A DNA stretch of 64,000 bases, taken from a phage. The notes beneath the pieces were generated by a model. The model saw only the letters and a program-made list of their open reading frames with translations. It was not told where the DNA came from and did no database searches. The stretch's first letter is position 1, and each line of letters opens with the position of its first letter. The stretch lies in the sequence record PZ386953.1; one strand, given 5' to 3'. Of this stretch, positions 27,173 to 56,762 are shown piece after piece. A program made the translations under genes and the position numbers.

Positions 27173-27442
27173 ATGTTATACCAGCAATATGAACTTCGTG
27201 CAGAAAAAGAGTTAAATTTTGACAAAGATATTCACAGATATTATTATGGGAAAGTTAGAGGGCAAGCAAGAAAGTGTACTCCAACACTCTTTTATGCCAG
27301 CAGACGACTAGCGCCAGAAGAGGCAACAGCAGAAAGGGTTGCGTACAACTGGAGAGTCACGTATGATATTGACAGATTCGATGTGATATCTGTTTTGGAA
27401 AACTTTGAAAACACTTACACACAAGTAGAGGACTTTTACTAA
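27173..27442 (+). CDS. hypothetical protein
   Basis: 89-aa ORF. Confidence 0.4.
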   Translation: MLYQQYELRAEKELNFDKDIHRYYYGKVRGQARKCTPTLFYASRRLAPEEATAERVAYNWRVTYDIDRFDVISVLENFENTYTQVEDFY

Positions 27443-28626
27443 TGTCAAGAAACGTATTCGAAAGTGGTCAAATCACTGTCCGTGAGTTGCCAGCTATTAT
27501 TCAGTTTGCCCAACGTCATAGCCGATCTGTCCTAATTTTGGGACCAATGGGTGTGGGTAAAAGCCAGGTGATGAAGCAGATCGCTGATAATATGTTCGGT
27601 GAGCGAGATGACAACCTTGTTGACGTGCGACTGTCAGATAAAGATCCTGCCGACTTATCTGGGCTACCTATCCCTGTAGAAGCGGATGGAACTACACGTA
27701 CAGTGTTTGCAATTCCAGAATTTTGGCCTGCGAATCCTGACTGGAGCGGAATTATCTTTCTGGATGAGCTCACTCATGCAGATAACTACCTGCAAAAGGT
27801 TGCAATGCAAATTATGCTTGACCACAAGTGCGGCACCTATGCATTCCCTAAGGGCTCTGTTTTTGTGGCTGCGGGTAACCGTTCTACAGATGGTGCGGTT
27901 CTTTCGGCGCTCGAAGCCCCTCTGGCTAACCGTTTTATCATTGTAGAGGTTACAAGCAATGCAGAGGTGTTTATTGAGGACTACGCATTCCTCAACGGGG
28001 TTCACTCCTCTGTAATTGGGTATCTGAAAAGAGTTCCATCAGCTATTGATAATTATGAGGCTATGGCTGAGATTAATTGTCCATCTTTTGCCACACCACG
28101 ATCTTGGGTTGCTGCATCTGACATCTTGCACGATTTTGACAGCGGTATTATTTCTGACGCTATGGCCCGTGTTCTTCTGCAAGGTGCTATTGGTCACACT
28201 GCAGCGGTAGAGATCTGGACTTACCACACCAAGAAACGTAATTTACCGGAAATCGGTCGGATTATGGCAGGTGGCTGCAAAGAATATGTAGGTCCTAAGC
28301 AGCCAGACATTTTGTGGATTCTTGGATCTGAAGGTTGTATCGCTATTCGCAATATGATGGAAAATGCAAGTATCTCAGACGAAGATCTTGTCAGCTGCGT
28401 GGCAAACTTCCTCGATTTCCTTTGGGAAAACTTCAAGGACGAGAACCGAGATTTTGTATTCTCAGTCTTTATGGCGATGATGAAACCTAATGCCTTAGGA
28501 AATGCCTTGCTTATCGGTAAAGGGCGTGACAAGATTGTTGCTCAGCTGATCAAAGCATACCCAAACCTGATGAAGATTGTAAAAGAGTTTGGTGAAGAGT
28601 TTAGCGCCATTTTGGCTAAAGCTTAA
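27442..28626 (+). CDS. AAA+ ATPase, MoxR-like
   Basis: Walker A GPMGVGKS, Walker B IIFLDELTHA; TAATG overlap with upstream gene. Confidence 0.6.
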   Translation: MSRNVFESGQITVRELPAIIQFAQRHSRSVLILGPMGVGKSQVMKQIADNMFGERDDNLVDVRLSDKDPADLSGLPIPVEADGTTRTVFAIPEFWPANPDWSGIIFLDELTHADNYLQKVAMQIMLDHKCGTYAFPKGSVFVAAGNRSTDGAVLSALEAPLANRFIIVEVTSNAEVFIEDYAFLNGVHSSVIGYLKRVPSAIDNYEAMAEINCPSFATPRSWVAASDILHDFDSGIISDAMARVLLQGAIGHTAAVEIWTYHTKKRNLPEIGRIMAGGCKEYVGPKQPDILWILGSEGCIAIRNMMENASISDEDLVSCVANFLDFLWENFKDENRDFVFSVFMAMMKPNALGNALLIGKGRDKIVAQLIKAYPNLMKIVKEFGEEFSAILAKA

Positions 28627-29028: not shown

Positions 29029-29057
29029 TCCCCCGCTTCGGCGGGGATTTTCTATTT
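29029..29057 (+). terminator. intrinsic terminator
   Basis: CCCCGC-TTCG-GCGGGG (same stem-loop as 2599) then ATTTTCTATTT. Confidence 0.65.
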
Positions 29058-29066
29058 GGAGTCATT

Positions 29067-29567
29067 GTGAAAATTAAGATCTTTGCTATTATTTTGAGCG
29101 CACTTTTATCGCTGCCTGTTGTTGCAGCACCAAAACAAAAAGTATATCATACTTGCAAGCCATCAGATACTAAGGAAAACATTCTGGCATGCAATATCTA
29201 CAGGGAAGCTAGAGGAGATGGCACGATGGGTATGCTGGCATCTGGGTTTGCCACACTAAACAGGAAATCCCACCCTAAATACCCAGACACTATAAGAAAG
29301 ATTGTCTACCAACCTAACCAGTTTTCGTGGACAAACCACGGCAAAACTTTTAAGGTGACAGAAAAAGATTCATGGGATCACGCTAAAAGTCTTGCAAAGA
29401 TGCTTCTAAAGGTCTATAATAACAACCATGTTGCATACATGGCTATGGACATAACAGGTGGAGCAACACACTACCATACAACCAAAGTACGACCGAAATG
29501 GGCAAAAAAGATGCAGAGGACAGCTCAATTCGGGAGCCATATCTACTACAAGGAGCGCAATAAATGA
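29067..29567 (+). CDS. secreted cell-wall hydrolase, SleB-like
   Basis: N-terminal signal peptide (MKIKIFAIILSALLSLPVVAAP); LNRKSHPKYPDTIRKIVYQPNQFSW resembles the SleB/CwlJ hydrolase core. Confidence 0.5.
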   Translation: MKIKIFAIILSALLSLPVVAAPKQKVYHTCKPSDTKENILACNIYREARGDGTMGMLASGFATLNRKSHPKYPDTIRKIVYQPNQFSWTNHGKTFKVTEKDSWDHAKSLAKMLLKVYNNNHVAYMAMDITGGATHYHTTKVRPKWAKKMQRTAQFGSHIYYKERNK

Positions 29568-31546
29568 TTGTAAACAGTAATGAAACTAAAGCAGTGCTGA
29601 CCGGAAATATGGAGGTCACCAGGGGCTCAATTTCTCTGAACAAAGAGACTTTTGGGCTAATCATTAAAGGGATTTACGAAGATAAGGTGCTGGCAAGCTG
29701 CCGTGAACCAATCTTCAATGCTGTGGACTCCCATGTTGAGTCTGGACGGGGTGATGTACCGATCATCATTCACTCTCCTACAGACCTTGAACCATACTTC
29801 TTTGTGCAGGACGTTGGATTGGGCATGTCAGAAGAGATGGTCCGCAACACTTTCATGAATCTCGGGGAGTCAACCAAGCGCAACAGCAACGCTCTGGTAG
29901 GTAATAAAGGTGTTGGTTCAAAGGCTCCGTTCAGTATGGTGGACACTTTCGATGTTATCAGTGTGCACAATGGTGTTGAAAGCACATATCTATTGTTCTT
30001 GGATCAGGGTATCCCAAACGTTACCAAGATCCGTGAGCGGAAGACTGAAGAGCACAACGGGGTAAAAGTTCAGTTCCATGTTAAGAAAGAGCATGTCCTG
30101 AAATATCGCACTGCTATTGCATCGTGCTTACGCTATGCGAAGTTTCCGTTCATCGTCACCGATCCTATGACCAGTAAGATGTTAGAAGGTGACAAGGTTG
30201 AGGCACAGTATCATTACGAGAAGGATGGCTGGAAAATGACCATCCTGAAAGGTTATACCAGTTCTGATGAGAGCCGTGTTGTGATGGGTCACCAACCTTA
30301 CCGCTCCAAGTTCCTGGAGACATTGACCGATTACCCTGCAATCTGCGTGGAAATTCCTATTGGGGATTGCAATATTAACCCTGGGCGTGAATGGACCATA
30401 GAGGGCCATGACGACGGTGGATTCCAGGATCGCCTGGAGGCCTTTGTCAAAGAAGGTATACGTCTTCGCGGGGCAGAAGTTATTGCAGAACTGGAGACGG
30501 CAAAAACCTCCGCAGAAGCACGTGAAATGATGAAGAATAGTGGAGTGTTCGGACACATCTTCGGCAAAAACTTTATGTGGAACCGTTGGGAAGAAACAGG
30601 GCTTGGCGACTTAGGCGATTGTGAAATTTTCGCTGGCGGCTTAAATAAAGGCCGCATAGGCTATGCTCGTTACGGAAAGTCGGAGTTCTTACGAGGTGTA
30701 TACCTTGTATTTAACGACGGAGATGGTAAATATAACCGAAATAAGTGTAACTACTTAAGCGAAATCACCGGACGCAACGTTTTCTATTGCCGGAACACGG
30801 ATCTGGTGAAAGAGTTTAAAGAGGCGGCACACCATCCGTTCTTTGCAGATACTGTCAAATTGTTATCAGAGCTCCCTCGCCGACCTGCGAAGAAAGGTGA
30901 AACAAAAACTCATTACGAGCCAGGTTATTGGGTTAAAAAGCTTGAGAAGGATGGTTACTTCCGTCGTGAACGTATTACTAAGGCAGAGTTCAAGAAGATT
31001 AAGCACTGCATTCCTTATGAGGGTGATATCCAACGTGGAAGTTGTTGGCTGGGACAGCTGAGTAACATCTACCAGCAAAATTATGACCGTGTGCGTGCTG
31101 CACTCCAGATTCCTGAAGGTGAAGATCTGTACTTGGTATCAGAATCTCGTCTGCTTTGGACTGATCCTGATTGCCAGTATGTTACAGAGAAGAATGTGGA
31201 ACACTTGTTGAAAGAGGATGCTTGGAAATTCTTACTGACTCGCGCAGCAAATGAAACTTCATATGACAGCTTGTATAGACAATTAGGGAAAATTATCCCC
31301 ATGCAGGATTTTGGAAATTATCGGCCACATTTCCACAAGTGGGAAGGTAACACCGCGTGGAAGCACAGTGAGCTAAATCATCGTGCCAAAATCTTAATCG
31401 CCAACCGGGTTAAGTGCGGGAAGGCCTATATTGCAAGATTGGAAAAGAAATATCCACTTTTGAAGCATGTGGGCTTGAAATATTGGGACACCCCTGCTAT
31501 GATTGAATACCGTGAGCTGATCGATACAAAGAATAACATCAAATAA
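29564..31546 (+). CDS. GHKL-type ATPase-like protein
   Basis: Bergerat-fold motifs in order: N-box EPIFNAVDS, G1 DVGLGM, G2 GNKGVGSK. Confidence 0.5.
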   Translation: MIVNSNETKAVLTGNMEVTRGSISLNKETFGLIIKGIYEDKVLASCREPIFNAVDSHVESGRGDVPIIIHSPTDLEPYFFVQDVGLGMSEEMVRNTFMNLGESTKRNSNALVGNKGVGSKAPFSMVDTFDVISVHNGVESTYLLFLDQGIPNVTKIRERKTEEHNGVKVQFHVKKEHVLKYRTAIASCLRYAKFPFIVTDPMTSKMLEGDKVEAQYHYEKDGWKMTILKGYTSSDESRVVMGHQPYRSKFLETLTDYPAICVEIPIGDCNINPGREWTIEGHDDGGFQDRLEAFVKEGIRLRGAEVIAELETAKTSAEAREMMKNSGVFGHIFGKNFMWNRWEETGLGDLGDCEIFAGGLNKGRIGYARYGKSEFLRGVYLVFNDGDGKYNRNKCNYLSEITGRNVFYCRNTDLVKEFKEAAHHPFFADTVKLLSELPRRPAKKGETKTHYEPGYWVKKLEKDGYFRRERITKAEFKKIKHCIPYEGDIQRGSCWLGQLSNIYQQNYDRVRAALQIPEGEDLYLVSESRLLWTDPDCQYVTEKNVEHLLKEDAWKFLLTRAANETSYDSLYRQLGKIIPMQDFGNYRPHFHKWEGNTAWKHSELNHRAKILIANRVKCGKAYIARLEKKYPLLKHVGLKYWDTPAMIEYRELIDTKNNIK

Positions 31547-31556
31547 GGAGACCAAG

Positions 31557-32762
31557 ATGATTTTCATCTACGAACATTTCAAAACCCGTAAAGAAGCACG
31601 AGACCGCCGTGCAGAACTTGAGAAGAAGGGTTTCACATGTGCCGTTGAGAAAGGCGACACAACCTGGACACTGGCAGTTGGTGCCCCAGAGTTGTTCGAT
31701 CCTGACCGTGACAGCGTCTGCTACACCCGTGAGGATTTTGAAACCCGCGAAGAGGCCCGTTTATTTCGATACGGTCTGGAAGATAACGGTAAGTACGCTA
31801 TGATCTTAGATTTAGGCGAAGGTTCCGTTAAACGTTGGGGCGTGGTATACCCACTGTGTGTTGTTCACGGTGTGGGGTTCACTGGGGTGGCAATCAAGTC
31901 AGAAGAACCTTTAGTAGAAGTCAAAGATCCGGTGCTGGAGGTGGTGAGCAGTGTGTCTCAGCAACAGACTCGAAACATCGAGCCTTTGGTGGTTATTTGT
32001 GGGGAACTCCTCCAGATCACCTGCAACGAAGGCATTTTTGAAATTCGCCGCAGCGAAAGTGAGGAAGTTTACCAGAAAGTCTTCGACCATATCTCTGTTC
32101 AGGAATATGACGAGGCAATTGGTGAAATCCTTGTCTGGTTGGAACGCAAGAATGAGTTCACTACACTTGCAGACAACCTGATTATGAAAGATGGTAAGCT
32201 CTATTACTACGGTGTAGAGATGCAATCTACCATTGCAAAGAAAATTGAGGAAGATTATATAGATGGAACACTGGACGACCGATATGTTAAATTCCTTGTC
32301 CGTCTGCTACGCAACCCGTCTGCAAAATCTGTGAACATGCTCTACGATTTCATGCAGGCTAATGACATCCAGGTTGCAGAAGATGGTCGAATCATTTGCT
32401 ATAAGGGGGTTCAGTTTAACGGAAGCAAGTGGGTGGATTGGCACAGCGGTAAAGTTCCACAATACCAGGGTGCTTTTGTATCCATGCCTCGTAACTTTGT
32501 AGAAGATGATCCGGAAGCTGCGTGTTCTTATGGCCTGCACTGCGCCAGCAAAGAGTATGCAGCGGGCTATGGCACCGTAATGATGGTTATGGTTGACCCT
32601 GCGGATGTGGTTAGTGTGCCATACCAACACAACAGTGCTAAGTGCCGTGCATGCCGCTACGAAATCGTAGCAGCACCGGAATCACGCAAAGATGGCGATC
32701 CGATTGAATACGTGGTTGACCGTGATGGTAACACTATCGACATTCTTTACGAGGAGGCGTAA
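31557..32762 (+). CDS. hypothetical protein
   Basis: 401-aa ORF, AAGGAGA RBS, tightly coupled to flanking ATPase and helicase genes. Confidence 0.45.
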   Translation: MIFIYEHFKTRKEARDRRAELEKKGFTCAVEKGDTTWTLAVGAPELFDPDRDSVCYTREDFETREEARLFRYGLEDNGKYAMILDLGEGSVKRWGVVYPLCVVHGVGFTGVAIKSEEPLVEVKDPVLEVVSSVSQQQTRNIEPLVVICGELLQITCNEGIFEIRRSESEEVYQKVFDHISVQEYDEAIGEILVWLERKNEFTTLADNLIMKDGKLYYYGVEMQSTIAKKIEEDYIDGTLDDRYVKFLVRLLRNPSAKSVNMLYDFMQANDIQVAEDGRIICYKGVQFNGSKWVDWHSGKVPQYQGAFVSMPRNFVEDDPEAACSYGLHCASKEYAAGYGTVMMVMVDPADVVSVPYQHNSAKCRACRYEIVAAPESRKDGDPIEYVVDRDGNTIDILYEEA

Positions 32763-56390: not shown

Positions 56391-56762
56391 ATGGAATTTA
56401 TTATTTTGGCTGTATTGGTTGCCTTGTTTAACGCCTGGATCGCTGGCAAGATGGGAAGATCCGCCTTTTTATGGTTTATTATATCTATTTTCCTGGGGGT
56501 GGTTGCAACTATTGTATTGGTTATCCTTGCAATTGTTGACAAGGGGAATAATAGAAAGGGTAAAGTATTTTCAGACCTGTACGACGCTCAAACGTTTGTC
56601 AACGCCTATTATAGTGATCTTCCAGTCTCCCTACGCTGCAGCCTGGCACAACAGGTTTTTGATGAGGCTAAAACCAGAGATCAAGCCCATGAGATATGTT
56701 TAACTGAGGCGGATCGCCTATTTGAGAGGAATAGAAAATATGTGGGCCAACCGTTTAAATAA
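56391..56762 (+). CDS. membrane protein
   Basis: ATG after AAAGAGG; two predicted TM helices. Confidence 0.45.
   Translation: MEFIILAVLVALFNAWIAGKMGRSAFLWFIISIFLGVVATIVLVILAIVDKGNNRKGKVFSDLYDAQTFVNAYYSDLPVSLRCSLAQQVFDEAKTRDQAHEICLTEADRLFERNRKYVGQPFK

Follow-up and report, generated by a model that had tools for sequence, protein, structure and literature searches.

The window, a 64,000-nucleotide stretch of phage DNA (PZ386953.1), carries on its plus strand at positions 29067–29567 an intact open reading frame (ORF) of 166 aa with a GTG start and a TGA stop, as found by ORF analysis of the whole stretch. The original prediction had placed a gene here; the gene is real and the coordinates are right to the base. 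The window derives from a Vequintavirus, an rV5-like coliphage: over the 6 kb that surround the gene, identity to Escherichia phage EdH4 is 99.8%, and to dozens of other Vequintavirus myophages it is 97–99%. The features of the locus are collected in Table 1.

Table 1 Features of the hydrolase locus and the candidate holin gene, with positions in the window
Feature	Position	Strand	Basis or remark
MoxR-like AAA+ ATPase	27442..28626	+	PHROG 1297, E = 3.7e-110; relatives' annotations
Conserved hypothetical ORF, 126 aa, no transmembrane segment	28637..29017	+	PHROG 12370; no Pfam match
Intrinsic-terminator-like hairpin CCCCGC-TTCG-GCGGGG (29031–29046) plus T-run	29031..29053	+	14 nt upstream of the start
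Shine–Dalgarno sequence GGAG	29058..29061	+	5 nt before GTG; kept in relatives L013 and L014
Predicted secreted SleB/CwlJ-family (Hydrolase_2) peptidoglycan hydrolase	29067..29567	+	Pfam, PHROG, PDB, AlphaFold2/Foldseek, dN/dS
Predicted Sec type I signal peptide, codons 1–20	29067..29126	+	MKIK / IFAIILSALLSL / PVVA, own heuristic
Cys30 to Cys42 codons, likely periplasmic disulfide pair	29154..29192	+	Subclade-specific; disulfide inferred
Catalytic Glu47 codon, motif Y-R-E-A-R-G	29205..29207	+	Aligns with the Glu of Y-G-E-S-R-G in SleB 4f55/4fet
rIIA	29564..31546	+	PHROG 612, E = 1.8e-124; HATPase_c_3 domain
rIIB	31557..32762	+	PHROG 609, E = 2.2e-60
Homologue of JeffSchatz 'putative holin' bas55_0113	56391..56759	+	tblastn, 97.6% identity; candidate by annotation

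The hydrolase gene and its neighbourhood

No possible start codon lies between the upstream stop codon and the GTG at 29067. We considered the next methionine, M54, as an alternative start and rejected it, because the catalytic Glu47 would be lost. Comparison with two diverged relatives yields dN/dS values of 0.03–0.04, far beyond chance, and the GTG start, the Shine–Dalgarno sequence and the terminator are all kept in diverged relatives. The hydrolase gene is under strong purifying selection.

The gene had been described as lying between an AAA+ ATPase gene and a GHKL ATPase gene inside the replication module. The order is correct, but the 126-aa ORF and the terminator hairpin intervene on the upstream side. 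The downstream gene does encode a HATPase_c_3 domain, but it is rIIA, with rIIB next and a gene for a Dda/PIF1-like helicase after that; its closest surroundings are thus formed by the rII pair, not by replication enzymes. As a description of the wider region, 'replication module' is roughly fair. The hydrolase gene is on the strand that also encodes helicase, primase and DNA polymerase, in a rightward early/middle arm. This arm begins at a divergent promoter region, runs on through methylase genes to those for primase/helicase and DNA polymerase, and corresponds to the proposed transcription unit '10-1-238-164' of rV5 (PMC3606486). The TGA of the hydrolase gene overlaps the ATG of rIIA (ATGA), which suggests that the translation of the two genes is coupled.

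The terminator hairpin is annotated in EdH4 and is invariant in relatives whose coding dS reaches 0.59. We rejected a promoter of the gene's own, as the 20 nt that separate the hairpin from the GTG are too short for one. With that space too small, the hydrolase gene is probably expressed by read-through of the terminator, and the combination of read-through with a GTG start suggests that expression is deliberately low. A sigma-70 scan from 24 to 36 kb returned 22 sites compared with 21.6 in shuffled sequence, which is no excess, and the internal TTGCAA-17-TATAAT (29392–29420) was left uninterpreted for this reason. Among the ORFs of the window, none that flanks or overlaps the hydrolase gene contains a transmembrane segment, in agreement with the earlier remark that no holin gene is adjacent.

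Family, fold and active site

Pfam profile PF07486, Hydrolase_2 ('Cell Wall Hydrolase'), matches the protein with 70.4 bits (E = 2.1e-19; curated cut-off 27 bits) over profile positions 2–100 of 100, and PHROG 938, 'endolysin', matches it with E = 1.6e-27. The sole phmmer matches among PDB sequences are 4f55 and 4fet, both catalytic domains of Bacillus SleB. The AlphaFold2 model, which rests on 11 sequences, has a mean pLDDT of 88.7 with low confidence confined to the first 20 residues. In a Foldseek search against the PDB, 4f55 and 4fet alone were retrieved with a probability of 1.00 and target-normalised TM scores of 0.72–0.79. The superposition with SleB has an rmsd of 2.7 Å over 128 columns, and all other PDB entries gave E > 2.

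Glu47 sits in the helix N-I-Y-R-E-A-R-G and is conserved to 99% in an alignment of 151 sequences, consisting of the hydrolase and the 150 top-ranking sequences among 11,355 database representatives. The signature residues Y45, R49, N65, R66, Q85-F86-S87-W88, P143, W145 and H158 are all present. Taken together, the Pfam match, the exclusive structural matches to SleB and Glu47 bear out the original assignment to a SleB/CwlJ-like hydrolase. The catalytic glutamate of SleB is presumably E157 in B. cereus and E151 in B. anthracis. SleB is a lytic transglycosylase that relies on its catalytic glutamate (PMC12331253), and by analogy the hydrolase may use the same chemistry.

SleB proper combines an N-terminal peptidoglycan-binding domain with the catalytic domain. 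The hydrolase has a single Pfam domain, preceded in residues 21–37 by a short linker, and since the second domain is absent its architecture resembles CwlJ rather than SleB. The hydrolase may be active on the peptidoglycan of E. coli, although the spore cortex on which SleB acts contains muramic δ-lactam, a feature absent from E. coli.

Two patterns of paired cysteines occur in the family. C30 and C42 co-occur in 27 of the 27 sequences of the alignment that have C30, and 71% of the family instead carry theirs at positions 39 and 77. This would fit alternative disulfides formed in an oxidising compartment.

Signal peptide and export

A signal peptide had been claimed, with signal-peptide prediction proposed as a check. 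Our own heuristic finds a textbook tripartite Sec type I layout, comprising (i) the n-region MKIK with two lysines and hence two positive charges, (ii) the h-region IFAIILSALLSL of 12 residues, rich in L, I, F and A, with a Kyte–Doolittle mean of 2.7, and (iii) a c-region P-V-V-A followed by A-P, which provides a −3/−1 site of the form V-x-A. The heuristic looks for a charged n-region, an h-region of 7–15 residues and small residues at −3/−1, and the hydrolase has all three. Predicted cleavage after A20 leaves a mature protein of 146 aa and 16.9 kDa with a pI of about 9.9. Both export and the cleavage site are thus inferred from the amino-acid sequence.

Two other kinds of N-terminus were considered and rejected. 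For a lipoprotein, the lipobox is absent and there is no cysteine near the cleavage site. For a signal-anchor-release (SAR) domain, the h-region has the wrong composition (62% L/I/V/F/M and 25% G/A/S/T) and is only ~12 residues long, and it is followed by a proline and the V-V-A site.

The N-termini of PVP-SE1 gp243, T5.083 and a phi92-like homologue have the same build with A-x-A-type sites, yet they cannot be aligned with that of the hydrolase. Four phage lineages have retained this kind of N-terminus although its sequence differs between them, which counts toward export, as do the co-varying cysteine pairs and the signal peptide published for the Certrevirus orthologue CB7_83. Of the 150 top-ranking representatives, 133 likewise have a hydrophobic N-terminal stretch. 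We hold with high confidence that the protein belongs to the SleB family and is exported.

Lysis genes elsewhere in the genome

Near-identical relatives encode endolysins of the lambda R type, among them JeffSchatz bas55_0204 and rV5 gp89. The bas55_0204 product, annotated as 'endolysin', starts MKLDKNVQRKAFLDMIAYSEGTDNGRQ, matches PHROG 90 (E = 5e-56) and has no hydrophobic N-terminus; our own comparison with the lambda R sequence shows it to be plainly of this type. In JeffSchatz, a phage of the BASEL collection, Rz/Rz1-type spanins are encoded directly upstream of the terminase gene. The endolysin and spanin genes of the relatives fall outside the window, and of the relatives' lysis-related genes the holin candidate alone (Table 1) falls inside it, 27 kb from the hydrolase gene. 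A canonical lysis cassette elsewhere in the genome had been named as an observation that would speak against the original proposal. The near-identical relatives largely bear this objection out: they do have such lysis genes, albeit dispersed and not grouped in a cassette. In the description of the rV5 genome, gp89 is called 'an obvious lysin' and a distant holin is proposed, and the SleB-like gene is absent from the discussion of lysis (PMC3606486).

The statement that the gene is not part of a lysis cassette holds, as its neighbours are the hypothetical ORF and rIIA. With a signal peptide, and with neither holin nor spanin genes next to its own, the hydrolase does not have the properties of a canonical holin-dependent endolysin; nor, given the lambda-R-type endolysin encoded by the relatives, does it have those of the principal lysis enzyme. 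The idea that it serves as the Sec-exported main endolysin of the phage is unlikely, because relatives carry a lambda-R-type endolysin, Rz/Rz1-type spanins and a holin candidate elsewhere. The same follows from phages in which a SleB-like protein stands beside another endolysin, namely T5.083 beside lys in T5 and gp243 beside gp146 in PVP-SE1, gp146 being a characterised endolysin (PMC3352856). The reading that we tentatively favour is that the hydrolase may be a muralytic enzyme with an accessory role in the periplasm, where it would loosen or remodel the sacculus in the course of infection.

The muralytic fold and the signal peptide would also suit a true second endolysin, exported without a holin, inactive while the membrane is energised and freed when the holin collapses the proton-motive force (PMF). 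Such an enzyme would either duplicate the lambda-R-type endolysin or act in synergy with it. Restraint by the PMF is known for Lys44 of the Oenococcus phage fOg44 and for SAR endolysins. We consider a second endolysin possible but rather unlikely: the gene belongs to the early/middle arm, a long way from all holin and spanin genes, and a cleaved, freely soluble enzyme that is made early would require some restraint.

Orthologues and more distant homologues

Searches with tblastn matched 1240 phage records, 116 of them at 95–100% identity and the rest below 60%; PVP-SE1, Klebsiella phage KP12 and a Certrevirus are 49–58% identical. The records of the relatives name the gene product 'cell wall hydrolase', 'SleB cell wall hydrolase' or 'putative hydrolase (CwlJ)'. 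In PHROGs and in several entries of GenBank the family goes by plain 'endolysin', a label that agrees with a second endolysin and not with an accessory role. It is well supported that the hydrolase is the Vequintavirus orthologue of the 'cell wall hydrolase SleB' gene of rV5-like phages. The orthologues rV5 YP_002003504, PVP-SE1 gp243, Cronobacter CR3_087 and Pectobacterium CB7_83 match the hydrolase in size and in the architecture of the signal peptide.

In the Vequintavirinae, the gene had already been annotated, its family assigned and its signal peptide described, and the impact of our analysis on annotation is accordingly small. For the Certrevirus protein CB7_83, Buttimer et al. (2020) reported a signal peptide, homologues in all Vequintavirinae genera and, as data not shown in that paper, toxicity on expression in E. 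coli; they also noted that its CR3 homologue, CR3_087, is 'implicated in host lysis' (PMC7344957). Their points have been repeated in later genome papers (PMC9769974 among them). Both the implication in lysis and the toxicity of the orthologue speak for a second endolysin, as does the fact that every Vequintavirinae genus has the SleB-like gene, whereas their cytoplasmic endolysins vary between an M15 peptidase, a lysozyme-like and a lambda-R-like enzyme. Our literature search found no biochemical, localisation or expression study of a SleB-like enzyme from a Gram-negative phage and no transcriptome or time-course data for a Vequintavirus. The main text of a phage transposon-mutagenesis preprint makes no mention of Vequintavirinae, rV5, phage T5, hydrolase, rIIA or endolysin.

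The gene order SleB-like, rIIA, rIIB, helicase is found again in PVP-SE1, where it runs across the arbitrary ends of the record and gp243 precedes rIIA as in Vequintavirus, and in nine Seunavirus-like viral contigs. In Certrevirus, small ORFs downstream of the SleB-like gene replace rIIA/rIIB, with no other material difference. One of them, which holds the place taken by rIIA in the window, is a small overlapping ORF with two transmembrane segments that was proposed as a (class II) holin in these phages, for which no lysis cassette was found (PMC7344957). The copy in phi92-like phages has genes for a TerD-like protein and a glycosyltransferase as neighbours; T5.083 is located in the early region of T5, which also has lys and a holin; and the PaoP5 copy, with a membrane-anchor-like N-terminus, adjoins a DNA ligase gene. 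We therefore rejected a general linkage between SleB-like and rII genes. Because the copies of Certrevirus, T5, phi92-like phages and PaoP5 have other neighbours, the linkage is lineage-specific, and the trait that recurs is a SleB-like gene among early/middle genes, apart from the canonical lysis genes. T5-like Salmonella phages were described in similar terms, with a SleB-domain 'endolysin far from holin' beside an M15 endolysin that adjoins the holin (PMC11180984).

The early/middle position in four phage lineages raises the question of whether the enzyme serves a periplasmic purpose other than lysis. It could remodel peptidoglycan for envelope-spanning phage structures, interfere with superinfecting phages or with envelope-stress or defence signalling via a changed sacculus or muropeptide pool, or have a role tied to rIIA/rIIB. 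The overlap of the hydrolase stop codon with the rIIA start, the gene order maintained in Vequintavirus and Seunavirus-like genomes and the apparent dispensability of the T5 copy under laboratory conditions are in line with such a purpose. However, the rII linkage extends neither to Certrevirus, which has no rIIA/rIIB at this place, nor to T5, phi92-like phages and PaoP5 with their unrelated neighbours, and we regard a purpose outside lysis as improbable.

Homologues from uncultured phages differ in their N-termini, which are SAR-like Gly/Ala/Ser-rich anchors, carry lipoboxes or have no extension at all. Phages thus use the SleB fold in all topological formats known for endolysins, and the SAR-like anchors are a further point in favour of a second endolysin. 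We scanned 12 neighbourhoods of such homologues for small membrane proteins and found no consistent lysis cassette. In many uncultured phages, a SAR-like homologue could be the only lysin, which would be at odds with an accessory role there.

In a genome-wide CRISPRi-ART screen of T5, knock-down of T5.083 was scored 'Not Fit', as were the canonical endolysin lys and several virion genes, and the holin was scored 'Fit' (PMC11879866). That knock-down of the holin reduced fitness and knock-down of lys or T5.083 alone did not is what redundancy of two endolysins predicts. Yet the screen has many false negatives: since lys and virion genes are also 'Not Fit', it is insensitive for many genes and the negative result for T5.083 is weak evidence. 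The screen is equally compatible with T5.083 being dispensable and with T5.083 and lys being redundant.

Proposed role of the hydrolase

As the best explanation overall, we propose with moderate confidence an exported SleB-fold enzyme in an accessory role. The gene would be transcribed within the long rightward early/middle operon by polymerases that read through the conserved upstream terminator hairpin, and translated from a weak GTG start, an arrangement that should keep expression low. The 20-residue signal peptide would direct export of the pre-protein via SecYEG, with cleavage after Ala20 by signal peptidase I. The basic mature protein of 146 residues would fold in the periplasm, probably with a Cys30–Cys42 disulfide, and would use Glu47 to cut glycan strands in the sacculus of the host, acting as a lytic transglycosylase if the analogy with SleB holds. 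Main lysis would be left to a soluble lambda-R-type enzyme that is encoded elsewhere in the genome, released by the holin and helped by Rz/Rz1. The hydrolase would at most assist final lysis or be redundant with the main enzyme.

A more speculative variant, to which we assign very little probability, combines the hydrolase and rIIA/rIIB into one envelope module, in which the enzyme would be a PMF-gated second endolysin, pre-loaded into the periplasm and harmless only while the membrane is energised. The rII proteins, as 'membrane integrity protectors', would then silence the hydrolase by blocking premature depolarisation, for example by abortive-infection channels. If this variant were true, the rII proteins would gain a concrete client outside T4.

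Several large, unrelated virulent phages of enterobacteria, among them rV5-like, PVP-SE1-like, phi92-like and T5-like phages, keep a second, probably Sec-exported hydrolase of the SleB fold in their early/middle regions and hold it under strong purifying selection, and they also have a conventional endolysin, which is documented for the rV5-like, PVP-SE1-like and T5-like groups. Pipelines that call the Hydrolase_2 family 'endolysin' will mis-assign the lysis gene in such phages.

Comparison with known systems

The closest counterparts outside the Vequintavirinae are the SleB-like proteins of T5 (T5.083) and of phi92-like phages (Stephanstirmvirinae). Both are secreted single-domain Hydrolase_2 proteins, 37–43% identical to the hydrolase, and both are encoded in early/middle regions away from the canonical endolysin and holin genes, with neighbours unrelated to those in the window. 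T5.083 has the commoner Cys39/Cys77 pair, whereas the hydrolase has Cys30/Cys42.

Bacillus SleB and CwlJ share the catalytic fold and the glutamate motif with the hydrolase (4f55, 4fet), at only 21–24% identity. CwlJ is a single-domain protein like the hydrolase, in contrast to SleB with its N-terminal peptidoglycan-binding domain. A phage enzyme in E. coli meets neither a spore nor the partner YpeB nor a muramic-δ-lactam substrate.

Export by the host Sec system without a holin pore is familiar from Lys44, the Sec-secreted endolysin of fOg44, and from the SAR endolysins Lyz of P1 and R21 of phage 21. Each of these is the only endolysin of its phage, is linked to a holin or pinholin and has another catalytic fold. 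SAR domains are long, rich in Gly, Ala and Ser and remain uncleaved, whereas the N-terminus of the hydrolase is short, rich in Leu and Ile and ends in a signal peptidase I site.

Expression of the hydrolase gene and its neighbours

The hydrolase gene is preceded by a terminator hairpin whose distance to the GTG start codon is just 14-20 nt, too short for a promoter. Because a promoter does not fit into this gap, expression of the hydrolase, rIIA and rIIB appears to depend on read-through of the terminator, and the hairpin may serve to attenuate the expression of a toxic gene. A sigma-70-like site within the hydrolase ORF, ~145 nt upstream of rIIA, could allow independent expression of rIIA, but the frequency of promoter-like sites in this part of the window does not exceed that in shuffled sequence.

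Features of the hydrolase region and of a related phage
Feature	Location	Sequence record	Remarks
Intrinsic-terminator hairpin	29031-29053	window	strong, conserved; upstream of hydrolase GTG
Cys30 codon	29154-29156	window	hydrolase gene
Cys42 codon	29190-29192	window	hydrolase gene
Sigma-70-like TTGCAA-17-TATAAT	29392-29420	window	inside hydrolase ORF; 10/12 matches
rIIB N-terminal ~124 aa	31557-31930	window	two short repeats; marginal Pfam SPOR match
Lambda-R-type endolysin bas55_0204 (JeffSchatz)	31103-31573	L003 (JeffSchatz locus)	outside window

SPOR domains bind the glycan strands of peptidoglycan. The two repeats of rIIB (YEHFKTRKEARDRRAELEKKGF... and REDFETREEARLFRYGLEDNGKY...) give rise to a marginal Pfam match to this domain. 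With the cut-off at 21 bits, the isolated N-terminus reaches a score of 22.9 bits, and full-length rIIB one of 19.4 bits. The match is curious, given the neighbouring peptidoglycan hydrolase gene; rIIB itself is without an export signal.

Homologues and the endolysin of relatives

Uncultured-phage homologues, encoded on contigs among L038-L048, L054-L057 and L079-L088, differ in their N-termini: some are SAR-like and rich in Gly/Ala/Ser/Thr (e.g. MSRAVNIASGLLTMSGLAAVAVTLTMM), others carry a lipobox (FIIGC), and in further homologues the N-terminal extension is absent. From these sequences, the Hydrolase_2 fold appears in all export formats known for endolysins.

Several unannotated records (MG065635, MG065646, MG065656, MG065659 and others), titled 'Campylobacter phage C12/C5/D1/C3' with Campylobacter jejuni as host, were retrieved by DNA comparison of the region (16 records) and by tblastn with the hydrolase protein (23 records). 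The DNA of C12 and C5 is 97-98% identical to the E. coli Vequintavirus of the window, and the D1 hydrolase is 98.8% identical to its counterpart; C3, with a protein identity of only about 41%, seems to be phi92-like. As regards the stated host, the records appear to be mislabelled or to stem from coliphage contamination.

The endolysin bas55_0204 matches PHROG 90 (5e-56) and yields no match at E<=0.01 in the Pfam copy searched, although pfam00959 is cited in the rV5 paper (PMC3606486).

Comparison with phage T5

For T5 (NC_005859), we considered T5.040, T5.041 and T5.083 in the supplement of the CRISPRi-ART screen (PMC11879866). The holin is scored 'Fit', whereas a score of 'Not Fit' is given both to lys, the canonical endolysin, and to T5.083, the secreted SleB-like protein. 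This pattern could reflect either two redundant muralytic enzymes or mere low sensitivity of the screen.

The usual cysteine pair of the family, at positions 39 and 77, occurs in 71% of members, T5.083 among them, whereas the Vequintavirinae/phi92-like subclade carries Cys30 and Cys42 instead, as a strictly co-occurring pair. Judging by these sequences, the subclade has swapped the 39/77 pair for Cys30/Cys42.
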